Assembly (NCBI GenBank): GCA_034520885.1
Contig: JAXHNE010000002.1
Span: 4,787-68,786, forward strand
Reading direction: 5' to 3'
Source of the DNA: Candidatus Saccharimonadota bacterium
Lineage (GTDB): Bacteria > Patescibacteriota > Saccharimonadia > Saccharimonadales > JAXHNE01
Length of the DNA: 64,000 nt
The position numbers and the translations under genes were made by a program. Below the pieces are notes generated by a model. That model did no database searches. It was not told the DNA's origin and worked only from the letters and a program-made list of their open reading frames with translations. This document shows positions 9,755 through 61,393 of the stretch, one piece after another; positions within the stretch are counted from its first letter, which is position 1, and each line of letters starts with the position of its first letter.

Positions 9755-9922
9755 ATGCTTAATATATTCGTTTTACGGATAAAAACGCAAGCACGAGCAC
9801 TTACATACGACCCCTGAAGCACCTCACAAAAATTTTCAAAATTGTAACGATCGTTCAAAATTTGAGATTTTTATTTCGTGCGTGGTTAGAACGATAAGAG
9901 CTGTGGTGGTGGTAGCGTTTTT

Positions 9923-14520: not shown

Positions 14521-14935
14521 TAGTTTATAGGTTTTAGTGGTTAGATGCTAGAGATTAGGGGTTAGAGGTTAGTAGGTGGAAGGCGGTAAGCGACTTCGTC
14601 GCAATAGACGATAGATGAGAATTAATAGGTGATAGATGAGGGGTGATGGGTCGTATAGTTGGTAGGTGGCAGTTCTATAGTTCTGAGTAGTGAGTGGTGA
14701 GCTTCAGATAATACTAGAATTAATATCTAGTATTAATTCTAGTATTATTGAAACTTACCAGGCACGAACTGGAAGATAGCAGTTGGCAAGCGGGAAGCTT
14801 TTAGACCCGGAACCGCCGCCACCTCGTTTATCACCTATTAATTCTCATCTATCGTCCTATTGCCTACCGAAGTCGCCTACCTCTTATCTATCACCTATCG
14901 ACTATTATCTATTAACTCTCACCTATGCGGCTTTG
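14521..14935. mobile_element. foldback (MITE/IVS-like) element with heptamer-word arms, a long inverted repeat and a 42-bp AT palindrome
   Basis: The left half is C-poor and the right half is its G-poor complement. 14590-14634 is the inverted repeat of 14829-14876. The near-perfect palindrome is at 14708-14749. There is no ORF, and the element separates xseB from xseA. Confidence 0.7.
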
Positions 14936-17211: not shown

Positions 17212-18513
17212 ATGAAGTCACTGGCAATTTTAGGACGGCAACCGGCAATTGGCCTTGCGGAGCTGGAGTCGCTGTATGGCGCCGAAGCCGTACGACCCGT
17301 CGGCGAAAACGCCGTTACCGTTAACATCGCCCCCGATCAAATTGAGTTCAGGCGGCTGGGGGGCACGGTAAAGCTCGCCAAATTATTGACAGTTTTAGAT
17401 TTTACGAACTGGGATAAAATTGAAGATTTTCTGGCCGAGGAACTCCCCAAGCACACCTGTTGCATTACGGAAGGCAAACTGACGCTGGGGCTGAGCGCCT
17501 ACGGGTTCAAAATGAGTCCCAAAAAATTAAACGCCACTGCCCTGTCGCTGAAAAAGACCATCAAAGCCACCGACCGGCCGGTAAGAATTGTACCCAATAA
17601 GTCACTGGAGCTTTCCAGTGCACAGGTACTGCATAACAAATTATTTACCTCGCACAATTGGGAGCTCATTTTGCTGCGTGACGGCAACGAAACCTACCTG
17701 GCACAAACTACCAACGTGCAAGATATCGACGCTTACGCCGCCCGCGACCAAGCCCGGCCGGCCCGGGACGCAAAGGTCGGCATGCTCCCACCGAAATTAG
17801 CCCAAACGATAATTAATTTGGCTGTAGGCCAAATTAAAAAGATTGAAGATCGAGGACAGGAGAACGAAGAAAAAAACCCTCAATCCTCAATCCCCCATCC
17901 TCTATCAGTTTTTGATCCGTTTTGCGGAACGGGCGTGATACTACAAGAAGCGCTACTAATGGGATATCAAGTGACTGGAACGGATCTCGATGCACGTATG
18001 GTCGAATACGCCCGGCGCAACATGGACTGGCTCCAGCAAAAATGGAAGGTGGAAGGTGGAAGATGGAAGGTGGCAGGTGGCAAATGGAAGGTGGAAAATG
18101 GCGATGCAACGGATTACTCCTGGCCTGCGCTCTCAGCTTCCGGCTCTCGGCTCTCGGCTACCATCGCTTGCGAAACGTACTTGGGACGACCGTTTTCTTC
18201 CGCGCCGGATCACGCTACGCTGCAAAAAGTCATGCGTGACGTGGACACCATCCACGAAAAGTTTTTAAAAAACGTGGCCTCGCAGACGGAGTCGGGTTTT
18301 CGAATGTGCCTCGCCGTGCCGGCATGGGCACGCCACAGACAACAGACAACAGACAACAGACAACAGACTTTTAGGCATTTACCGGTGCTTGAAAAATTGA
18401 ACGAACTGGGGTATACTCGATTAAGTTTTGCTCACGCAAGAAACGAGGAGTTGATCTATCACCGAGAAGGTCAAATCGTCGGCCGTGAGCTCGTCGTTCT
18501 AAAAAGAACGTAA
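17212..18513 (+). CDS. RNA (guanine-N2-type, Trm11/UPF0020-like) methyltransferase carrying three in-frame low-complexity inserts
   Basis: N-terminal THUMP-like region and SAM motif I VFDPFCGTGVILQEALLMG. The inserts are at 17841-17906, 18038-18165 and 18335-18368. Confidence 0.7.
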   Translation: MKSLAILGRQPAIGLAELESLYGAEAVRPVGENAVTVNIAPDQIEFRRLGGTVKLAKLLTVLDFTNWDKIEDFLAEELPKHTCCITEGKLTLGLSAYGFKMSPKKLNATALSLKKTIKATDRPVRIVPNKSLELSSAQVLHNKLFTSHNWELILLRDGNETYLAQTTNVQDIDAYAARDQARPARDAKVGMLPPKLAQTIINLAVGQIKKIEDRGQENEEKNPQSSIPHPLSVFDPFCGTGVILQEALLMGYQVTGTDLDARMVEYARRNMDWLQQKWKVEGGRWKVAGGKWKVENGDATDYSWPALSASGSRLSATIACETYLGRPFSSAPDHATLQKVMRDVDTIHEKFLKNVASQTESGFRMCLAVPAWARHRQQTTDNRQQTFRHLPVLEKLNELGYTRLSFAHARNEELIYHREGQIVGRELVVLKRT

Positions 18514-18720
18514 AGCAAGAAGTTAATTAACAAACTGATGCCGAGAAATTCAGGGTTTTCCCTGCGCCGATGAATGGCGGTTTGACAGCGAAGCACGGAC
18601 CGAGCCGTACTACAAGTACGGTGAAGGGGGTACTGGAGCTGGCAAACCGGCAGTCGCGGCGAGCTCATGCGGAGTCAGATGCTCTGCATCTGAGCAGGCA
18701 TTAGCGACAGGAGAAGCCTG

Positions 18721-21052: not shown

Positions 21053-21061
21053 TGCTATAAT
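21053..21061 (+). promoter_or_regulatory. extended -10 promoter (TGcTATAAT) facing the 191-bp tandem array
   Basis: TG at 21053-21054 and TATAAT at 21056-21061. On the opposite strand, TTGACA (21066-21061) could serve the FHA gene. Confidence 0.5.
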
Positions 21062-21100
21062 GTCAACTTGCGTTCAGAACAAAGCAGGCTCGACGGTATG

Positions 21101-21600
21101 AGTACTAAACCTGGCGTCCTGACTTTGTGCCAGATTGAAATTTTATCCGCGAAGCGCCAAGGAAGCGTACTGAACGTACGGTGACTGCGACTCGTAAGGA
21201 TAAAATACTCAAGCTGGCCAAGAAACATGAATCGCGCGCCTAGTGCTCACACTTGAGTACAGTTTGGTCGTTCTTTTCGAGGAGCGGACCGAGTACTAAA
21301 CCTGGCGTCCTGACTTTGTGCCAGATTGAAATTTTATCCGCGAAGCGCCAAGGAAGCGTACTGAACGTACGGTGACTGCGACTCGTAAGGATAAAATATT
21401 CAAGCTGGCCAAGAAACATGAATCGCGCGCTTAGTGCTCACACTTGAGTACAGTTTGGTCGTTCTTTTCGAGGAGCGGACCGAGTACTAAACCTGGCGTA
21501 CTGACTTTGTGCCAGATTGAAATTTTATCCGCGAAGCGCCAAGGAGGCGTATTAATATACGGTGACTGCGACTCGTAAGGATAAAATATTCAAGCTGGCC
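21101..21600 (+). repeat. tandem repeat, 191-bp unit x about 2.6 (candidate multi-unit ncRNA)
   Basis: Units start at 21101, 21292 and 21483 and are nearly identical by eye. Each has several hairpins, including GCGTAC-TGAAC-GTACGGTGACTGCGA. Confidence 0.85.
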
Positions 21601-21605
21601 AAAGA

Positions 21606-21656
21606 CAAACATCCAGTGGTATTTCTGGTTTTACCAGAAAACAGACTGGATGTTTG
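21606..21656. terminator. long bidirectional hairpin terminator
   Basis: CAAACATCCAGT (21606-21617) pairs with ACTGGATGTTTG (21645-21656), with an inner stem CTGGT/ACCAG. It lies directly after the receiver-gene stop and at the end of the tandem array. Confidence 0.65.
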
Positions 21657-22215: not shown

Positions 22216-23832
22216 CTATCTGCGAGAGTTCACCTTAAAACAGGCTTCGATAAACCCGTTGAACATGGGGTGTGGCCGATTGGGGCGAGATTTGAACTCC
22301 GGGTGAAACTGGCTGGCCAAAAAGAACGGATGATCCACGCCTTCAATGACCTCCACCAGTTTTTCGTCCGGGCTGGTGCCGCTGGCCGCGATTCCCCACT
22401 GCTCGTATTTATCGCGGTACTCGTTGCTGCACTCGTAACGGTGGCGGTGCCGTTCGGTAATCGCGCCGGTTCCGTATACTTTACGTGCCACGCTACCCTT
22501 GGTGAGTTCGCACGGATAGTCGCCGAGCCGCATGGTGCCGCCAGTGTTTTCCAAGCCTTTTTGCCCGGCCATGGTGCTAATTACTACGTGCTCGCTTTCG
22601 GGATCAATTTCCTGGCTGCTGGCATCTTTGACCCCCGCATTGCGGGCGGCGGCCACTACCGCCATTTGTAAGCCCAAACATAATCCCAAGTACGGAAGTT
22701 TGTGCTTGAGCGCGTACTGAGCGGCAATGATTTTACCCTCCAGCGCCCGGGTACCGAAACCGCCTGGCACCACGATGCCGTCCACGTTTTCCACGAAATG
22801 TGACAACGAACCCTCGGCCTCCACTTTTTCGGCATCAATCCATTTTATATGTAACTTGACATCTTGCCACCAAGCCGCGGCGTAGAGCGCCTCGAACACC
22901 GACATGTAGGTGTCTTCGTTATCCATATATTTGGCCACCACACCCACGGTGAGCTTCTTTTTATGATTGCCCTTGGCCTTTTTGACCATCTTCTCCCAGT
23001 CCTTGAGTTTCGGCCGACCGGCTTTTATTCCCAAACGTTTGATAATTACCTCGCTAATACCGGCTTTTTCCAGCGTCAGCGGTACTTGGTAGATTGACGG
23101 CGCGTTCGGAAGCAAAGCAATCGCTTCCGGCGGTACGCCGCTAAACATACTCAGCTTATTAATCACGGCCTTGGGAGCGGAAGATTCGCTGCGAGCGACC
23201 AGTACGTCGGGAACGATTCCCAAACCGCGCAAATCCTTTACGGCGTTTTGCGCCGGCTTGGTTTTGATTTCCTTACTGGCGCCCAGATACGGCAGATACA
23301 CCACGTGCACGAACGCGTAGTTTTCGCGCCCCACGCTTTGGGCCAGTTCACGAATGGCCTCCAAAAAGCTCAAGCCTTCATAATCACCCACCGTGCCGCC
23401 AATTTCCACGATGTGCACGTCATAGCCTTCGCCGGCTTTCATGATCTCTTTTTGAATGGCTTTGGTAACGTGCGGGATAAATTGCACGGTTTTGCCGCCG
23501 TATTTTCCGTTGCGTTCGTCCTGGAGCACTTTTTCTAGGACGCGGCCGCTCATTAAGCTGCTGCTTTGGGTCAGCTCCTGATCCATAAAACGCTCGTAAT
23601 GACCAAGATCCAGATCGGTTTCCGCGCCGTCTTTGGTCACGAAGCACTCACCGTGTTCCGCCGGGTTCAATAAGCCGGCGTCACGGTTTAAGTACGGATC
23701 GCATTTTTGAACGTTGACGCTCAAGCCGCGGGATTTTAGGAGACGGGCGATGGAGGCGGCGGTGATACCTTTGCCGAGTCCCGACAAAACGCCACCGGTA
23801 ACAAACATAAACTTCGTCGGCTTTCGCATCAC
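22216..23832 (-). CDS. pyrG: CTP synthase
   Basis: FVTGGVLSGLGKGITAAS at the N-terminus and the glutamine amidotransferase motif GLCLGLQ. 538 aa. Confidence 0.95.
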   Translation of the reverse strand: MMRKPTKFMFVTGGVLSGLGKGITAASIARLLKSRGLSVNVQKCDPYLNRDAGLLNPAEHGECFVTKDGAETDLDLGHYERFMDQELTQSSSLMSGRVLEKVLQDERNGKYGGKTVQFIPHVTKAIQKEIMKAGEGYDVHIVEIGGTVGDYEGLSFLEAIRELAQSVGRENYAFVHVVYLPYLGASKEIKTKPAQNAVKDLRGLGIVPDVLVARSESSAPKAVINKLSMFSGVPPEAIALLPNAPSIYQVPLTLEKAGISEVIIKRLGIKAGRPKLKDWEKMVKKAKGNHKKKLTVGVVAKYMDNEDTYMSVFEALYAAAWWQDVKLHIKWIDAEKVEAEGSLSHFVENVDGIVVPGGFGTRALEGKIIAAQYALKHKLPYLGLCLGLQMAVVAAARNAGVKDASSQEIDPESEHVVISTMAGQKGLENTGGTMRLGDYPCELTKGSVARKVYGTGAITERHRHRYECSNEYRDKYEQWGIAASGTSPDEKLVEVIEGVDHPFFLASQFHPEFKSRPNRPHPMFNGFIEACFKVNSRR

Positions 23833-24078
23833 GTTGCCCTGCTTCCTGACAAAGTCAGAAACCTTGTCAACGTTTGTGGCGCGATACTGCGTTGACAGCT
23901 CCGTTGCTCATTCACCGTACCGTTAGTACGCCTCAGTCCGCTACTCACTGTCGCCTTGTCTCGCATCCACATGCAAAATCCTCCGGTCGGCTTCTTTGCC
24001 ACGCTCGCTACTCCCTCTAAACTATTCTTTAAATACTAACCCAGACAGAAGAAATCATCAAGAAAGCATTCCAATTAG

Positions 24079-29397: not shown

Positions 29398-29460
29398 CGG
29401 GCAAAAAGGCAAACAAAGTTCGCTTTATTGCCGTTGCTCTTGGCTCAATAAGTAATTTTC
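29378..29460. repeat. 83-bp direct repeat, copy 1 (overlaps the ftsE promoter)
   Basis: Identical by eye to 29673-29755. Confidence 0.85.
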
Positions 29461-29672
29461 CTTTGTGAGTACTCCCTCACCGTATCTCGATACGCCTCAG
29501 TCCGTTCCTCAAGGAGAAATTACTTCTTGAGCTCAAGTGCATGCCTCACGAAACCCGTATATCCATATCCAATTTTCTTCTGCGGTTCTCCTTCACCGTA
29601 CGGACAAGTACGGCTCAGTCTGCGTCCTCAAAGATAAATTGAATCTGGGATCACAAATGTGAGAGTGGTTTA

Positions 29673-29755
29673 TCGTGACACATGCACCACAACGGGCAAA
29701 AAGGCAAACAAAGTTCGCTTTATTGCCGTTGCTCTTGGCTCAATAAGTAATTTTC
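29673..29755. repeat. 83-bp direct repeat, copy 2
   Basis: Identical by eye to 29378-29460, with a period of 295 bp. Confidence 0.85.
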
Positions 29756-29956
29756 GTTTGCGGTGTTCACTCACCGTACCGAAAGTACGCCTCGCTGAAA
29801 CTCCTCACGAGAAATACCAAATGAGCCTCAAGTGTGTGGCTCTGATTGCAAATCGATTATTTAAGGAGAAATTGCTTCTTGAGCTCAAGTGCAAGTCTTA
29901 GGTTACACGAATTTTTATAGCAATTATAACGGTTTTGGAAGAGCCGGATTTTTAAT

Positions 29957-30592
29957 TTATTTTCGGGGTGCCCCTTCCGCGGTGCGGGCTTGAAAAATCG
30001 GATCGATTATTTCCGATTCAATTTCCGAAAGTACGGCAACTTTATGAGAGTCAACGCGTTCGTCGCCTTTTGGATGTGTGGGTATAAAATTCATATAGAA
30101 TGGCTCCAGCCCCAACTCCGGATGAACGCGTACCGAACGCGGATCGTAGGTGCGTTCGTTGGGCGTCTCGGATTTATCATGGTAATCGAGTGAAAGCAAA
30201 GGCTGCGGCTCTAGTGACGCGCTGTTGTCATCGTAGCTAAAACGAGTCACGATTCTGTCCTGGAAACGACGCCCGCCAGCCCCTGGAGGGGATAGCAGCA
30301 TGCGCTCAACTCTTGCTTTTAAAACCACATGTGGCCTCGTATCGGCTAGCGTTCGCAATGTCACCCAGCCCTCCTCGTCTTTAGTAGACCCGTCTGAATC
30401 TGTGGTATTTACCGCCACGCCGCTATAAAGCATCTTGTCCGTAAAGCTCCTTACTCTTTTAAGTAGCTCTTTGTTTTCGGCAACGCTTTGTTCTTCGGCA
30501 TTTTGGCGCTCGCGGGCTTCACGCCTTTGGCGTAAGGCCTCGTTATCTTCCGGTGACATGCGCAACTTTAAAAACTCCGGTGATTTTCTCAT
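29957..30592 (-). CDS. hypothetical protein
   Basis: 211-aa ORF with no motif I recognise. Confidence 0.5.
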   Translation of the reverse strand: MRKSPEFLKLRMSPEDNEALRQRREARERQNAEEQSVAENKELLKRVRSFTDKMLYSGVAVNTTDSDGSTKDEEGWVTLRTLADTRPHVVLKARVERMLLSPPGAGGRRFQDRIVTRFSYDDNSASLEPQPLLSLDYHDKSETPNERTYDPRSVRVHPELGLEPFYMNFIPTHPKGDERVDSHKVAVLSEIESEIIDPIFQARTAEGAPRK

Positions 30593-37106: not shown

Positions 37107-37199
37107 ATTTTCGTACTAACCCCTCTCCACGGTCTGTCATATGTCGATTACGTCAGCGTACATTCTACCTTAAATTATGGACAGATGTAAGAGTGTTTA

Positions 37200-44406: not shown

Positions 44407-45348
44407 TCAGACGAAAAAGATGAGCGACAAGACGACCAGCAACGTCGCCTGCAAGACAACGATCACCTTTTCAGCGGCTATAAAGTCCTTACCCAGCGAG
44501 CCGGATTTAGTAATTTGCTGCCGATGCACTTGCCCGAGCGCCAGGTAAGCCAAAAATCCGGCGGCCAACAAGGCATAGACGGAGGCGCTCAAAGTAACGA
44601 ACCCGTACAGGTAAGTGTGTAAAATGCTGATACCGATGATAACCCATGGCAAAAGCAGTGCTTCGATGGCGATTTTTTGTTTCAGCCTCGTACTGCGACC
44701 GATCAAGTTATAACGATCGGTCAAATACCCCAAGACGGCGGTAAATGCCGGAATGCTCGCCAAAAGAAGCAGCGTCATAACGTCGCGCACGCCGACCGCC
44801 GCGGCGATCACCGCGATAACCAACGGGCCGAAAACCGCGTGTTCTACCCAGTTCAAACTGGTAAATTTATTCTTTACTTGCGCGCTATAACGAGCGAATA
44901 ACCTTGTCGATAAAGCGGCGTGCCATAAAGCTCCGGCAATCAACACGCCCGCTGCCACGTACAACAGGTTAACCGCGAACAATTCGGTGGCCGCCGGCAA
45001 AAGCGATCCGGTTTCGGTCAAAGTATTCTCCGCCAGGTAGCTGGAGTTAATTCCCACCACCGCGTCATTGCCGTAGCTAAATAAGAATCCGGCCAACACG
45101 GCCATTAATAATCCTAAGAACACGTGCAGTTTTTTAAGCTGCATGAACGCGTCTTTTACGGGCGCGGTTTTTTTGCCCTTGGCCGTAGCCGCTGATTTTT
45201 TAGCGGTCGTTTTGGCCGTAGTTTTCTTGGCCGCCGTTTTCTTGGCGGGTTTTTTAGTGGATTTACGAGCCGTGCTCGCCCTGGAAGTCTTGGTCTTCGT
45301 TTTGGTCGTTGTTTTCGCTTTACTCGGTTGTTTCTTACTTGTAGCCAT
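44407..45348 (-). CDS. heliorhodopsin-like 7-TM protein with Lys/Ala/Thr-rich N-terminal tail
   Basis: Seven predicted TM helices. RYSAQVKNKFTSLNWVEHAV and LPWVIIG resemble heliorhodopsin segments as I remember them. The start is ATG 45348; the ORF-track extension to 45591 is spurious. Confidence 0.55.
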   Translation of the reverse strand: MATSKKQPSKAKTTTKTKTKTSRASTARKSTKKPAKKTAAKKTTAKTTAKKSAATAKGKKTAPVKDAFMQLKKLHVFLGLLMAVLAGFLFSYGNDAVVGINSSYLAENTLTETGSLLPAATELFAVNLLYVAAGVLIAGALWHAALSTRLFARYSAQVKNKFTSLNWVEHAVFGPLVIAVIAAAVGVRDVMTLLLLASIPAFTAVLGYLTDRYNLIGRSTRLKQKIAIEALLLPWVIIGISILHTYLYGFVTLSASVYALLAAGFLAYLALGQVHRQQITKSGSLGKDFIAAEKVIVVLQATLLVVLSLIFFV

Positions 45349-45578
45349 AATGAATGAACTATAGCATATTCCAGCTGATATAATAATAGTATGGTGCAAA
45401 GAGCTGAATGGAGGGATGCCGTGAACTACGCACGTGAGCATAGTTTGGCAGTTCTTCGCGAGCATCGTAAAAGAGGCGTACTTAACGGTACGGTGACTGC
45501 GAAGCGCAGAGAAAACTGGCAAAATATGCCACGAACAGCAACAGCACCACATGCTTGGCATGTGGGCAGGATGCTGTG

Positions 45579-53280: not shown

Positions 53281-54100
53281 GTTTGGACGGTAGAGGCGAG
53301 GAGTTGGTAGGTAGTAGATAGGAGATCGGGGATTGAGGATTGAGGATTGAGGAAAGAGTTCTGGGTTCATAGTTCATGGATAGGGTTTAGGGGCTAGGAG
53401 TTGGAAGATGGAAGTTGGAATTTGGTAGATAGAAGATGGTAGTTGGGAGTTAGTATTTCGTAGACAGTTGTCAGTTGTCCGTCTTCAGTAGTTGCGTTGT
53501 TCCAGGCTCTGGCTGAACTGATTGGACGATACGGGCAAAACCAGCAAACAAGCCTCAAGCTTGTTTTTTATGTAGTTACAACTGCCCTCGGCAGTTGTTC
53601 ACTTGGGCTCCAGGCTTCGAAAGCCTCCCCGGTAGTAGAACCAGTTCACTACGGGGCACGCCTGAGGAGCGAGTGTCAAAAGCACAATTTCTGCCGAGGA
53701 CTTGTTTGAGGGGTTGCCGGCTGAAGTATTTTGGCATACCCCGAGTTGTCCGAGCATTGTGCTTTTTGATAATGAGATCATAAAGAGGTTTTCGCGCCTG
53801 TGGCCTTTTTGGGGCACTTTTTGGCTACGCAAAAAGTGTCTGGGGGTGAAGCTGACCAGTCAGCTTCAATAATGACAGAACAAGATAGTGGGTCGGGAAA
53901 GCAAAAGCGAAGCTTTGCGCCGAAAAAACATACTTTGGGGCACTTTTTGGCCATGCAAAAAGTGCCTGACGGGAAGCTGACCAGACAGCTTCATATAATT
54001 CGTTACTGCCTACGATATTGATCGTATAGTTACAGTTGTCTAGCCCCTGTTGCAGAGCAATAATACTAGAATTAATACTAGTATTAATTCTAGTATTATT
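53281..54100. mobile_element. one-armed member of the foldback family: heptamer-word arm, roughly 590-bp structured non-coding core, perfect 42-bp AT palindrome
   Basis: Word arm at 53281-53470, hairpin modules at 53497-53995, palindrome at 54059-54100. The only ORFs here are short and inconsistent. Confidence 0.7.
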
Positions 54101-54120
54101 GAAGTTCCCCGCGAATGTTC

Positions 54121-56803: not shown

Positions 56804-56925
56804 CGCGGTCTTGAATATTCCTTAACAGAGGTGTATACTTGCCCGAGTTACAAAAAACGTACGCTGACTGCAGCCAGGCTCACTGCTAACCAGCGCCAAT
56901 CATTAACGAGCTAGGATTTTGTTTT

Positions 56926-57702: not shown

Positions 57703-58753
57703 ATGGATAAAAAGGAACAAGACCTACGCGACGAGCTCGCCGACATTATGAAACAGCTGGAAGATCCGGCTATTTTCAGCACGCCCGAGTATCCCAAAAT
57801 GCCGCCAAAAAAAGATAGAAGACATACTCGCGCTTTACGATGAACTGGCAAAGAGCAAAGAGCAAAGAGCAAAGAGCAAAGAGCTTCTGGACTCTGACGA
57901 TGAAGAATTGGCCGAACTCGCCAAAAGCGAGATAGAAGATCTGGATTTGAAAATTGAAACCCTCGAACTTAAACTAACGGAGGCTTTGACTCCAAAGGAT
58001 CCCAACGACGAAAAAGATGCCATTATAGAAATTCGCGCCGCGGCCGGTGGCGATGAAGCCGCCCTGTTCGCCGGCGAGCTATACCGCATGTACGCCCGTT
58101 GGTGCGAAACGCACGGCTACAAAATAGAACTTATCAACGAAAGTCCCGCGGAAGTCGGCGGGTTCAAAGAAATCAGCTTTTTGGTGCGCGGCGAAGACAC
58201 CTATAAATTCTTTAAGTTCGAAGGCGGCGTACACCGCGTTCAGCGCGTGCCGGAAACCGAAAGCCAAGGCCGCGTGCACACCAGCACCGTGACCGTGGCG
58301 GTCATGCCCGAAGCCGAAGAAACCGACATTGAAATCGACCAAAACGACCTTCGCGTAGATGTCTACCGAGCCGGCGGCCACGGCGGGCAATCCGTAAATA
58401 CTACGGACTCCGCCGTACGCATCACCCACGTGCCAACGGGGGTCGTTGTTACCAACCAGGACGAAAAATCGCAAATCAAAAACAAGCTCAAAGCCATGAA
58501 CGTATTACGTTCCCGCCTGCTCCAGCACAAAATTGACGAAGAAAACGCCAAGCTATCAGCTGAACGCAAAAAGCTGGTCGGCAGCGGCGACCGCAGCGAG
58601 AAAATCCGCACCTACAACTTCCCGCAGGACCGCATTACCGATCACCGTATTGGCTACTCCCGCAGCAACATCCCCGGAGCTTTGGACGGCCAAATAGACG
58701 ACCTCATAGAAGAACTCCACAAAGCCGAACACGAACTAATGAGTAACGAGTAA
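57703..58753 (+). CDS. prfA: peptide chain release factor 1, reading frame broken by one extra base at an A7 run (57807-57813)
   Basis: Frame 1 (57703-57813) encodes MDKKEQDLRDELADIMKQLEDPAIFSTPEYPKMPPKK. Frame 2 continues IEDILALYDEL...PKDPND...GGHGGQSVNTTDSAVRITH... to 58753. Frame 1 stops at 57841. Confidence 0.85.
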
Positions 58754-59637: not shown

Positions 59638-60513
59638 ATGATTACCATTTCTAGGTGGATGGCTAAAAAAACTAAAGCGCTAGAGAGCGCCGGGATTTCC
59701 ACCGCTCGACTGGATTGTTTGGTGCTTTTAGAGGACGCGACCGGTAAAGATCGTTCATGGTTGCTGGCGCATCCGGAGCACGAGTTAGAAAGTTCAAAAG
59801 TTAAAAAGCTGAAAGAGCAAGTTCAGCGGCGGGCTAAGCATGAGCCGCTGGCCTATATTCGTGGGCGGAGTGCTTTTTATGGCCGGGAGTTTTTGGTGAA
59901 CGAACATACTTTGCAGCCCCGGCCGGAAACGGAAACGATGATCGACCACTTAAAATCACTGTACAAGGTTGAACCTTGTACAGAAGCTAAAAGCTCTGAG
60001 CGAAAAGCTCTGAGCATAGTAGATGTAGGGACTGGATCTGGTTGTATTGGGATTACCGCCAAGCTGGAGCTGCCGGATGCGGAAGTGTATGCCACGGACA
60101 TTTCCGAAGAATGCTTAAAAATAGCCCGAAAAAACGCCCGAAAACTAAAAGCCAATGTGGAGTTCCACAAAGCTAATCTCCTCCTCTCCCAAAAAAATAA
60201 TTCTCACTTTTTGAACGATCGTTCAAAAAGTGAGAATATTGTTTTGCTGGCTAATTTACCTTATGTTCCGGAAGGTTTCACTATAAACCAAGCCGCGATG
60301 TTCGAGCCGGACGTTGCCATATTCGGCGGTAAGGACGGATTGGATTACTACCGCGAGTTATTCGCCCAGATTGAAACGCTAAAAACTAAACCACATTTCA
60401 TTTTTACCGAAAGCCTACCAACGCAGCACAAAGACCTGACTGCAATCGCAGAAAAACACGGGTTTCGGCTTCATGAATGCCAGGATTTTATTCAAGTATT
60501 TATTAGGCGTTAG
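59638..60513 (+). CDS. prmC: release-factor glutamine methyltransferase PrmC/HemK
   Basis: EPLAYIRGRSAFYGREF, VDVGTGSGCIGI, and NLPYV in place of NPPY. ATG at 59638. The stop TAG (60511-60513) lies within the terminal motif of the downstream foldback element. Confidence 0.85.
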   Translation: MITISRWMAKKTKALESAGISTARLDCLVLLEDATGKDRSWLLAHPEHELESSKVKKLKEQVQRRAKHEPLAYIRGRSAFYGREFLVNEHTLQPRPETETMIDHLKSLYKVEPCTEAKSSERKALSIVDVGTGSGCIGITAKLELPDAEVYATDISEECLKIARKNARKLKANVEFHKANLLLSQKNNSHFLNDRSKSENIVLLANLPYVPEGFTINQAAMFEPDVAIFGGKDGLDYYRELFAQIETLKTKPHFIFTESLPTQHKDLTAIAEKHGFRLHECQDFIQVFIRR

Positions 60514-61393
60514 ATGCTAGACGTTAGAGGGTAGAGGGTAGAAGTTGGAAGTTGGAATTTGGAAGGTGGAAGATGGTAGGCGACTTCTTCGCAAAAGGTG
60601 AGAGTTAATAGATAAGGGTTAATAGATGATAGATGAAGGGTGGTAGATGGAAGATGGAAGATAGAAGATGGAAGATGGGGAAAATAATAAGTAAAACATA
60701 AATAGTAAGTTTCCGGGCTCTGCCTGAAACGATTGGACGGCGCCTCGGGTAAAAACCGACAAACAAGCTTCAAGCTTGTTTTTTATGTAGTTACAACTGC
60801 TCCGGAGCAGTTGTTCACTTGGCCTCCAGGCTCTGGAACAACCTGGACGGACGTTGTGGGAATCAGGCGCCCTTGGGTACGAGGACTGTCTGAGCAGAAA
60901 TGGTGCCTGGCGGCACCATTTCTGTGAGTTTCACAGTAAGCCTGATTGTGACAACGGCCGTAGCTGTTGTTTCAGCCGCCTGTCGGCTTTTGTTGCAATC
61001 TTTTGCCGACTCAAAAGATTGCTGACGGGGAGCTGGTCAGTCAGCTTCGCTATTGGCGGAACAAGATAGTGGGTCGGGAAAGCAAAAGCGAAGCTTTGCG
61101 CCGAAAAAACATACTTTGGGGCACTTTTTGGCCATGCAAAAAGTGCCTGGTGGTGAAGCTGACCAGACAGCTTCTATTAGTAGTTACCTACTACTTTGAT
61201 TGTATAGTTATGGCCGTATCGCCCTTGTTAAAACGTAATAATACTAGTATTAACTCTAGTATTAATACTAGTATTATTTTTACTAACTATGAGGTGCTAT
61301 CTTCCATATCCTAAATTCCATCTTCCAAGCACTATCTTCTAGCCCCTGTCTTCAATCTTCAATCCCCAATCTTCATTCCGTAACAACTATGAA
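60509..61393. mobile_element. complete foldback-family element: two inverted heptamer-word arms, structured core, 42-bp AT palindrome
   Basis: Left arm 60509-60700 (C-poor), core 60712-61176, palindrome 61237-61278, right arm 61285-61393 (G-poor, the reverse complement of arm-type sequence also seen at 53300-53440). It fills the whole prmC-htrA convergent spacer. Confidence 0.75.

Follow-up and report, generated by a model that had tools for sequence, protein, structure and literature searches.

An intergenic hairpin repeat with a conserved tandem-GA apex in a Saccharibacteria-type genome and in distant bacterial phyla

We analysed a stretch of 64,000 nucleotides from a Candidatus Saccharimonadota bacterium (contig JAXHNE010000002.1, positions 4,787 to 68,786 of the forward strand), called the window below, in which a first-pass annotation had noticed a short hairpin motif ahead of several housekeeping genes. 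All nine hairpins are found at the positions and on the strands that it gave, and all nine are intergenic. The sighting was real and non-trivial, but it had caught only the tip of the element: the flanks of each hairpin pair with each other, and each copy folds as an unbranched rod of about 95-125 nt with the hairpin at its end. This rod is an intergenic hairpin repeat family that matches no Rfam 15 family and that is unusual in having a core conserved across phyla and helices which evolve by compensatory changes. We tentatively read it as a dispersed, self-contained intergenic hairpin repeat of the REP/ERIC/MITE kind (repetitive extragenic palindromes, enterobacterial repetitive intergenic consensus sequences, miniature inverted-repeat transposable elements), which would act generically on the transcript that carries it and would not be a switch specific to a ligand or a gene.

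Nine rods and the fold of the element

The pattern CGTAC-N5-GTACGGTGA, with at most 2 mismatches, has 5 matches in the window against 0.20 expected, and 5 or more were reached in 0 of 100 shuffles. A hairpin-aware scan of the window adds four variants to these strict matches. Variant stems are GCCGTAC/GTACGGT with a loop of 6 nt, CGTAT/ATACG in two copies with loops of 4 nt, and, in the copy before msrA, CGTACT/GGTACG with a loop of 4 nt. Compensatory variation of the stem (GCCGTACT/AGTACGGT, CGTAT/ATACG) and freedom of the loop, whose length ranges from 3 to 8 nt, had both been read from the letters, and both hold, as does the invariance of GGTGA, which is kept in 9 of 9 copies in the window. 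The neighbouring genes are confirmed by Pfam as encoding L27, CTP synthase, an FtsE-like ABC ATPase and MsrA. The "shorter versions" proposed at rpmE (56857-56872) and secA (37152-37161) had to be dropped: they consist only of a common 10-mer, GTACGCTGAC, without a hairpin, and neither site is matched by the covariance model R1 (see below) in a scan of the window. Thousands of repeated 10-mers are expected in 64 kb, by an arithmetic estimate which is not the result of a tool.

Model R1 was built from 30 copies, all from other genomes and none from the window. With its filters off, it retrieves exactly the nine window copies, at full length and on the strands first assigned to them, with E-values from 2e-14 to 2.8e-4; the next-best matches in the window are AT-rich hairpins with E above 0.01. 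The copy 5' of rpmA occupies 18562..18662 on the plus strand (apex 18604-18624; 22.3 bits, E 2.8e-4, over the full model) and has a minimum free energy of -63 kcal/mol on its strand against -53 on the opposite one. Three plus-strand copies lie in a tandem array with a period of 191 nt (2.6 copies, 97% matches), at 21121..21225 (apex 21166-21184; 28.1 bits, E 4e-6), 21312..21416 (apex 21357-21375; 30.8 bits, E 6e-7) and 21493..21615 (apex 21548-21565, with a CGTAT/ATACG stem; 33.8 bits, E 6e-8). On the minus strand, the copy 5' of pyrG at 23863..23984 (apex 23912-23930; 54.2 bits, E 2e-14) is the best match of the window to the family consensus, and three more copies stand on the side of ftsE: the first at 29736..29830 (apex 29771-29789; 32.6 bits, E 1.6e-7), the second at 29556..29656 (apex 29593-29614; 28.9 bits, E 2.4e-6) and the third at 29429..29548 (apex 29477-29494, again with a CGTAT/ATACG stem; 30.1 bits, E 1e-6). 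The copy 5' of msrA, on the plus strand, spans 45436..45529 (apex 45477-45496; 28.3 bits, E 3.6e-6).

Outside the window, a species-level scan (one genome per species) with the exact pattern GAGGCGTAC-N3-6-GTACGGTGA gave at least 120 stretches; this pattern demands the exact apex, and conservation of the apex in that set is therefore partly built in by the selection. Among the pattern matches listed from other genomes, 96 of 114 usable ones have at least 22 base pairs spanning the apex, and the rods have a median length of 124 nt, with a tight cluster at 118-129 nt. At its base the rod has a helix of about 23 bp, free in sequence but fixed in length, in which a purine-purine 1x1 mismatch and a bulged A stand at set positions, the interruption often reading GGAUGCAG / AUGCGCC. 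Above it come a 3-bp helix whose closing C-G pair is conserved, an asymmetric internal loop whose canonical form is C-N-A-G-G / A-A-C-N-N-N-G, and two covarying helices. The apex, 5'-GAG-N-[5-7 bp, loop 3-8]-N-UGA-3', begins with tandem G-A/A-G pairs, after which come a G-U pair and a variable N-N pair that carries the helix on. In a GA-rich variant which is common in Saccharibacteria, the window copies included, the upper helices are replaced by an irregular helix (GAGCACCGGAGC ... GCGAGGAGCGCAG) and the AGG/AAC loop is mostly missing; most window copies are without the canonical internal loop, and the pyrG copy retains it as CAAGGC / AACGCAG.

An alignment of 84 copies by MAFFT and RNAalifold recovered the apex alone, because the lengths of the helices vary, and it was replaced by a consensus of the individual folds in a length-homogeneous subset. 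The R1 matches in 99 loci, among the matches listed, together with the window form a set of 125 copies, with 1-7 copies per 8-kb locus. In the alignment of these 125 copies, which is fitted to R1, paired cells amount to 82.6%, against 53% after shuffling and 33-41% after sliding; the covariation score is 0.588, against 0.154 and about 0.10, respectively; and 42 of the 45 pairs have changes on both sides. The set contains 24 copies found by the model only. They retain GAG...UGA with stems that compensate (CUGUAC/GUACAG, CCGUAG/CUACGG, CCAUAC/GUAUGG), which partly offsets the selection bias of the pattern scan at the apex.

These model-only copies also bear on the complementarity of GGTGA to the 3' tail of 16S rRNA, to which the first-pass annotation had drawn attention. 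One could imagine that the apex is a split Shine-Dalgarno sequence, GAGG^UGA, which pairs with that tail as a ribosome standby site or decoy, a reading that we consider scarcely credible. By sequence logic, GAGG and UGA together are complementary to 3'-CUCCACU-5' of the universally conserved tail, and the GA-rich variant holds further GGAG/GAGGA strings. However, the fourth base of the model-only copies is U, A or C as often as G, and their GGUGA becomes GAUGA, GUUGA or AGUGA; GAGC and GAAG versions exist in the window itself; the distance to start codons is not that of a Shine-Dalgarno sequence; and the bases which are kept are those making the G-A, A-G and G-U pairs inside a continuous helix. 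The idea is weakened by the copies that the pattern did not select, in which conservation is limited to GAG...UGA and both the fourth base and the one paired with it vary.

The two strands of the element are not equivalent. Of 84 copies, 81 fold more stably on the GAGG strand, and the mean difference is 12 kcal/mol. Over the 84 copies this strand has 323 G-U pairs and 30 A-C 1x1 mismatches, the complement 148 and 82; in the outer, sequence-free helix, 147 G-U/U-G pairs stand against 12 A-C mismatches, and the 1x1 mismatches are mostly G-A, A-G and G-G. As G-U pairs are far in excess of A-C mismatches, the GAGG...GGUGA strand is the folded one, and this asymmetry excludes a symmetric double-stranded DNA site. 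The element is thus a folded single-stranded structure, on the strand that the first-pass annotation had named, and neither a double-stranded operator nor a product of chance. A double-stranded palindromic operator was also ruled out by the loops of 3-8 nt and the compensatory stems.

Breadth, repetition and age of the family

Among the matches listed, the carriers span more than ten phyla. In the Patescibacteria they are Saccharibacteria, Paceibacteria, Uhr-, Kaiser-, Lloyd-, Zambryski-, Peri- and Berkelbacteria. Further carriers belong to the Nitrospirota, the Methylomirabilota (Rokubacteria/Methylomirabilia), the Acidobacteriota (Bryobacterales and Holophagae), the Proteobacteria (Wenzhouxiangellaceae and other Gammaproteobacteria), the Myxococcota, the Bdellovibrionota, the Desulfobacterota, the Synergistota (Pyramidobacter), the Firmicutes (Syntrophomonas, Clostridia) and the Fibrobacterota, and one is a relative of Flavobacterium. 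An isolate, Anaerospora DSM 15969, carries three loci. Binning error cannot explain this breadth, since the Bryobacterales matches lie on contigs of 2.8 and 7.1 Mb (the 7-Mb one is closed) and the Nitrospira matches come from many independent metagenome-assembled genomes (MAGs).

Membership of a known Rfam family had been named as a check, and the window is without a match at the gathering thresholds of Rfam 15. With E-values allowed up to 5, window positions 17-31 kb give no family either, the only Rfam-like match at the hairpin that follows the array being a chance microRNA hairpin, and the search of 18 loci with canonical copies (ten plus eight) returned tRNAs only. In the full-text literature, neither the sequence GUACGGUGA, which retrieved unrelated papers only, nor the topic led to a description, a name being possible in work that cannot be searched. 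The element is not described in the 224-motif paper, in the 50-genome paper or in the 2026 genome-language-model preprints. Absence from a library is not a proof of novelty. A BLAST search with the GA-rich core found no match in phage and plasmid collections and 1 match among the 2.9 million viral contigs of IMG/VR.

The first-pass annotation had set the motif apart from "REP-like repeats". This distinction does not survive: the family is a REP/ERIC-like dispersed repeat, a short (<200 bp), multi-copy, non-coding unit which folds by pairing of its 5' and 3' ends. In Pyramidobacter, a unit of 133-145 nt is present at six loci with 92-99% identity. In Bryobacterales, a unit of 185-188 nt bounded by CTAG is 99-100% identical at three sites of one chromosome (96-100% for the units overall), with flanks that are unrelated between sites, and in Nitrospira an identical master sequence occurs at different loci. 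The ends show only a weak bias, T-A-R-R-R-C on the 5' side and G-Y-Y-Y on the 3' side; TA occupies the first model position in 21 of 99 copies and is diffuse at the 3' end. The basal helix is wholly different between copies and between genomes, and only recent copies within a genome have termini in common.

In the window, the copies are mutually 38-67% identical outside the array (93-99% inside it), and all nine retain the rod and the apex. That old, diverged copies have kept the structure, the fixed mismatches and the apex implies that each resident copy is under selection. Some copies there are truncated or nested. Each unit of the array (21100-21602, plus strand) contains a 5' half-element broken in the apical loop (…CGGACCGAG|TACTAAA…), after which comes a complete element; on the ftsE side, the truncated 5' arm of a further element lies at 29862..29893 on the minus strand, where 19 nt are identical to the 5' arm of the third ftsE-side copy. 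The half-elements and this isolated arm are signs of nested insertion or rearrangement. A role of the basal-helix arms as guides was rejected, since apart from this truncated copy they match nothing else in the window. The ten genes adjoining the window elements contain no transposase domain according to Pfam, no search having been aimed at RAYT.

Copy density differs strongly between relatives: there are 9 copies in the 64-kb window and 2 in the 295 kb of 59 related metagenomic Saccharibacteria pyrG loci. Of these 59 loci, 2 carry a copy, and in only one of them (L156) does it stand upstream of pyrG. The L156 copy is orthologous to that of the window and lies 30 nt 5' of pyrG, and the layout of element, short hairpin, GCAGG and start codon is the one seen in the window. 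The closest relative by pyrG (81% PyrG identity) has no copy and a different upstream gene. No empty site for the pyrG copy was retrieved, the synteny of this closest relative being different; the contig of locus L001, which is 99.98% identical to the window, is from the same strain and uninformative.

Many of these observations would suit another explanation, one that we judge unlikely on balance, in which the rod is purely selfish mobile DNA: a non-autonomous hairpin of the MITE/REPIN kind, copied via a single-stranded DNA (or RNA) intermediate, whose conserved apex and mismatches would be what a transposase or an HUH-type enzyme recognises and whose effects on host RNA would be incidental. 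It would account for near-identical copies at unrelated loci, where the repeat unit is the element itself, and for the Nitrospira master sequence, for the expansion of copy number in particular genomes, for the TA enrichment at the 5' boundary and the CTAG bounds in Bryobacterales, for truncated and nested copies, and for copies that end exactly at stop codons (see below). The orientation of the copies is inconsistent, and by the criteria of the Breaker laboratory multi-copy motifs of inconsistent orientation are candidates for mobile elements or repeats (PMC11109978). A single-stranded DNA intermediate would also explain the strand asymmetry equally well. However, between genomes it is the centre that is conserved and not the termini, and MITEs built on terminal inverted repeats show the opposite; a duplication of the target site is not demonstrable, and no transposase is seen adjoining the copies. 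The old copies at 38-67% identity, in the window and in other Patescibacteria, all retain the structure, the mismatches at their fixed positions and the apex, and several Nitrospira genomes have kept a copy at one and the same operon junction. The near-absence of matches from viral contigs and their absence from the plasmid and phage collections likewise speak against it.

Gene context and transcription signals

The context of the 125 copies was judged by simple calling of open reading frames (ORFs). The downstream neighbour is on the opposite strand for 55 copies and on the same strand for 23. In 33 of the 55 convergent cases, the stop codon of the neighbour falls at -22..+11 nt of the 3' end of the model, most often within 3 nt, and the convergent genes are unrelated housekeeping genes (gyrB, smc, rpsO, mreB, rpoD, argS, lepA, flgG and others). 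On its 5' side the element is preceded by a spacer with a median of about 90 nt, while its 3' side abuts the neighbour, and most copies adjoin the next gene with 0-7 nt. The 5' end of the element is purine-rich and its last four bases are 70-85% pyrimidine, as might suit an intrinsic bidirectional terminator, a stable hairpin between an A-tract and a U-tract. However, the U-runs are short, the hairpin is about ten times the usual length, and canonical terminators are found beside several copies.

There are seven junctions between an element and a tRNA gene, with gaps of -1 to 7 nt, all at the 3' end of the element (L047:2079-2281, L013:1672-1880, L087:3525-3850, L103:1494-1698, L081:2466-2681 and L048:3985-4196, each with its 3' end at most 7 nt from the tRNA gene). 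Four of the seven tRNAs have the same orientation as the element, which requires that they be co-transcribed with it. These loci belong to MAGs of Uhrbacteria and to small-contig MAGs labelled "uncultured Gammaproteobacteria". In L087, a tRNA-Met gene is sandwiched between two inverted copies, and the basal helix of the tRNA-adjoining clade has its own conserved sequence (GUACUAAGUUUG...CAAACUUGGGUAC). Nitrospira copies lie in the sense orientation inside operons, with 18 nt between yajC and the element and 20 nt between the element and secD in several genomes, and also between proC and yggT. The GC skew on the folded strand is negative for 62 copies and positive for 42. A rule based on the replication strand was ruled out, as the skew merely tracks the local orientation of the genes.

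In the window, strong TGnTATAAT promoters aim into two of the loci. The extended -10 promoter TGCTATAAT (21053..21061, plus strand) points into the array, 60 nt before the first copy, and is one of only 3 matches to the pattern TGNTATAAT in the window. On the 3' side of the array, a long hairpin at 21607..21655, directly before the stop codon (21659) of a convergent response-regulator gene, is probably a bidirectional terminator. The first of the three ftsE-side rods has a gene at 29957-30592 on its far side and ftsE on the other; TATAAT/TGCTATAAA boxes at 29928-29914 (minus strand) lie upstream of the truncated 5' arm. A terminator scan found a terminator-like hairpin with a T-run at 29704..29718 (minus strand), about 18 nt after the first ftsE-side element, and an identical hairpin at 29409-29423 (minus strand), after the third one. 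Judged by these signals, the array and the ftsE-side triplet form two separate putative units, each composed of a promoter, one or several elements and a terminator.

The FtsE-like gene most likely starts at ATG 29361; its own TATAAT (29374-29369, minus strand) ends 7 nt before this codon, which points to a leaderless ftsE mRNA. A longer ftsE ORF with a TTG start (to 29412) overlaps the terminator-like hairpin. As terminator-like hairpins and the separate promoter of ftsE intervene, the three copies are not in the 5' untranslated region (UTR) of ftsE, contrary to what had been proposed. At the other loci a leader position is plausible from the layout. The extended -10 promoter TGATATAAT (45376..45384, plus strand) stands 52 nt upstream of the msrA-side element, and a further 49 nt separate the end of that element from ATG 45579; no terminator intervenes, and for this reason we find it plausible that the msrA copy is in a 5' leader. 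The rpmA-side element starts 48 nt after the stop codon of the upstream gene and ends 58 nt before ATG 18721, and the pyrG-side element ends 30 nt before GTG/ATG at 23832/23829. Both are between co-directional genes and are therefore plausible leader or intercistronic elements.

A second motif was observed between the element and the start codon of rpmA, pyrG and msrA: a hairpin of 5-8 bp whose loop has 3 nt, with GCAGG immediately after it, at 8-25 nt from the start (18675-18698, plus; 23858-23838, minus; 45547-45570, plus; and L156:2478-2500). It may be a genuine structure near the Shine-Dalgarno sequence in the leaders of these three genes.

The first-pass annotation had proposed a gene-specific cis-regulatory RNA of the 5' UTR, be it a riboswitch, an attenuator or a transcribed operator, for rpmA, pyrG, ftsE and msrA. 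We now find this improbable. The elements of rpmA, pyrG and msrA are indeed in the sense orientation and end 30-58 nt before the start codon, the arrangement with the short hairpin and GCAGG is kept at the pyrG gene of L156, and Nitrospira copies are found 18-20 nt before start codons. But the statement that the motif lies always in sense and upstream of genes is true for 6 of the 9 window copies and fails for the three copies of the array, which have a minus-strand gene on either side; a terminator and a promoter stand between the ftsE copies and ftsE; and a copy precedes pyrG in a single related locus. Over the family, the neighbours are unrelated (gyrB, rpoD, mreB, argS, secD, flgG and tRNAs among them) and most copies have no downstream gene in sense, whereas a riboswitch or leader would occupy sense 5' UTRs of a coherent set of genes. 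No expression platform is coupled to the conserved domain, terminators following the ftsE-side copies only. Hence, in orientation and in context, the wider scan essentially contradicts the proposal on its own terms.

A further possibility is that the copies and arrays are genes of an autonomous family of trans-acting small RNAs, whose apex and loops would bind and titrate one protein as a sponge or scaffold. In its favour, the array combines a TGCTATAAT promoter of its own with three modules and a hairpin at the end, terminators follow the ftsE-side copies, the 5' spacer is kept over the whole family while the 3' side abuts the neighbour, and -10-like boxes peak 40-60 nt upstream. Another same-strand array, of six copies within 3.5 kb, was seen in a Bdellovibrionales MAG (L091:1374-4873). 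Against it, a streamlined genome would hardly need dozens of diverged paralogues of an RNA that acts in trans, the element is found in some relatives and missing in others, and many copies have no room for a promoter, being inside operons or 10-25 nt after a terminator. There is no sharp promoter signal at a fixed distance upstream of the copies, just the modest excess at 40-60 nt. We hold this explanation to be distinctly unlikely. The six copies of L091 overlap the call of a 570-aa ORF on the opposite strand, which is probably spurious; this locus shows that the repeats are able to create false gene predictions.

Several other features of the window were recorded beside these loci. A heliorhodopsin gene (44407-45348, minus strand; PF18761, E 5e-20), notable in a Saccharibacteria-type genome, is divergent from the msrA-side promoter. 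Tandem repeats with a period of 7 nt are found at 18043-18096, 18335-18368, 53399-53453, 57848-57884 and 60541-60678, with the units TGGAAGG, ACAGACA, AGTTGGA, GCAAAGA, GAAGTTG and TGGAAGA; the first of them is inside a 433-aa methyltransferase-like ORF (17212-18513). Palindromic AT-rich repeats of 12 nt (about 20% GC), TAATA(T)CTAGTAT / GTATTAACACTA, recur between genes (14701-14756, 54055-54102, 61235-61276, 60190-60246, 9828-9874), some of them being weak hairpin matches of the model. These repeats could be terminators or a further small repeat family.

Known systems and the possible function of the rod

The nearest likenesses are the MITE-like intergenic repeats of bacteria, such as ERIC/IRU, Correia/NEMIS, RUP, BOX and YPAL, which have been reported to affect mRNA stability through RNase III or RNase E in an orientation-dependent manner (PMC2229807). 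Like the rod, they are non-coding units of less than 200 bp in many copies, whose 5' and 3' ends pair to give a single long stem-loop; they are intergenic, in many cases directly behind a stop codon or within an operon, and are co-transcribed; TA is frequent at their ends, and copies expand in particular genomes with near-identical sequences. However, these families are restricted to a genus or a family of bacteria and conserve their terminal inverted repeats, whereas the rod has free termini and conserves its apex and internal loops across more than ten phyla. Unlike them, the rod also shows compensatory evolution of its helices and strongly strand-specific folding, with no shown target-site duplication or matching transposase. 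Terminal inverted repeats common to the copies and to a parent insertion sequence, which define a MITE, are absent from it.

The REP/BIME sequences and the REPIN-RAYT system resemble the rod in being extragenic palindromes at the 3' ends of genes, in which REP doublets form hairpins of about 100 nt; they are recognised in single-stranded form and by structure by a domesticated HUH enzyme, persist for long periods, and have been proposed to act in termination and mRNA protection (PMC3733652). The rod has no GTAG or CGTC tag, and it conserves the centre of the hairpin and an internal loop instead of two REP arms; REP units, palindromes next to such a tag, measure 20-40 bp. The attC sites of integrons (57-141 nt) are likewise imperfect palindromes directly after a stop codon, folded on the strand antisense to the gene, recognised by structure, with conserved extrahelical or mismatched bases in a variable sequence. 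Yet attC conserves its basal R''/R' boxes (RYYYAAC/GTTRRRY) and varies at the tip, while the rod does the opposite; the neighbours of the rod are core housekeeping genes, tRNAs and operon junctions and not cassettes, and no integrase was seen. We ruled out attC by the polarity of the end boxes, the rod having T-A-R-R-R-C at its 5' end and a pyrimidine-rich 3' end and lacking the L''/L' and R''/R' boxes.

The 4.5S or small signal recognition particle (SRP) RNA and 6S RNA are, like the rod, unbranched hairpins of about 115-125 nt with a sequence-free basal helix and conserved purine-rich internal loops near the tip, which bind protein in the SRP and 6S RNAs. Those RNAs come from single-copy genes with other conserved sequences, whereas the rod is multi-copy and patchy; no Rfam model, those of SRP and 6S RNA included, matches at the elements, and SRP and 5S RNA were ruled out on this ground. 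The tandem sheared-type G-A/A-G pairs next to a G-U pair recall the non-canonical stem of a K-turn. The rod is not a K-turn, because its helix continues straight without a 3-nt bulge (C-G, G-A, A-G, G-U, N-N, stem). Domain V of group II introns was rejected too, the likeness being confined to the lower helix.

By analogy with the hairpin ribozyme, the two conserved internal loops might dock in a new self-cleaving or otherwise catalytic RNA that would process transcripts at gene boundaries, which seems to us very improbable. The element is widespread and multi-copy, with conserved loop nucleotides, free helices and a position next to tRNAs and gene ends, and known small ribozymes have a similar distribution. 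Against this stand the lack of similarity to any Rfam ribozyme family, the lack of an apparent pseudoknot or junction, and the GA-rich variant, most window copies included, from which the canonical internal loop is missing.

We come back to the reading which we tentatively prefer, that of a generic hairpin repeat of the REP/ERIC/MITE kind. The mechanism that we infer has two parts. The long duplex would be a barrier or a processing handle on the carrier transcript, by protecting 3' or 5' ends, by offering a site for cleavage of the RNase III type, or by termination between transcription units. The invariant tandem-GA apex and the internal loop would be the recognition surface of one conserved partner, which could be an RNA-binding protein of the host or the machinery that copies the element.

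Several points weigh against this reading. In Patescibacteria, many copies are antisense to both neighbours; the region is there probably transcribed on the other strand, which fits badly with a role of the RNA of the GAGG strand. In about a dozen of 70 Patescibacteria loci, a canonical terminator stands 10-25 nt upstream of the copy, which leaves no room for a promoter of its own and makes transcription of the GAGG strand doubtful at these loci. The -10-like boxes found 40-60 nt upstream (16, against about 3-10 in other bins) are weak evidence for such a promoter. The strand bias fits RNA and single-stranded DNA alike, and the folded molecule could be DNA, since G-T and tandem G-A pairs are also stable in single-stranded DNA. 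The partner, the processing and the termination are all steps that we infer. Finally, that internal loops are conserved in sequence from phylum to phylum is unusual for repeats of the REP/ERIC type and may reflect a more specific function.

Another reading is possible, if somewhat less probable in our opinion: the rod would be an undescribed and phylogenetically very broad class of structured non-coding RNA, 124 nt long, with a tandem-GA apex, a conserved asymmetric internal loop and a specific molecular function. It might be a catalytic RNA, the scaffold of a ribonucleoprotein, or a signal for processing or for factor-dependent termination, for example, and would have been overlooked in annotation through its concentration in uncultured lineages (Patescibacteria, Nitrospirota, Acidobacteriota and others). 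The selfish element and the trans-acting small RNA are serious rivals; the cis-regulator, the ribozyme and the anti-Shine-Dalgarno idea carry little weight.

If the checks of Rfam and of the literature are right in suggesting that the rod is unannotated, it is among the more widespread unnamed structured elements of bacteria, with 45 bp of strong covariation over more than ten phyla and 9 copies in 64 kb of a streamlined genome of the episymbiont type. It matters for annotation, as copies run into stop codons, come within 3-7 nt of tRNAs and can give rise to spurious ORFs. As Anaerospora hongkongensis DSM 15969 is a carrier in culture, the question of its function can be put to the test. The element gives a handle on how ultra-small genomes mark the boundaries of their transcription units, and on the question whether RNA-level selection can maintain hairpin repeats over time.

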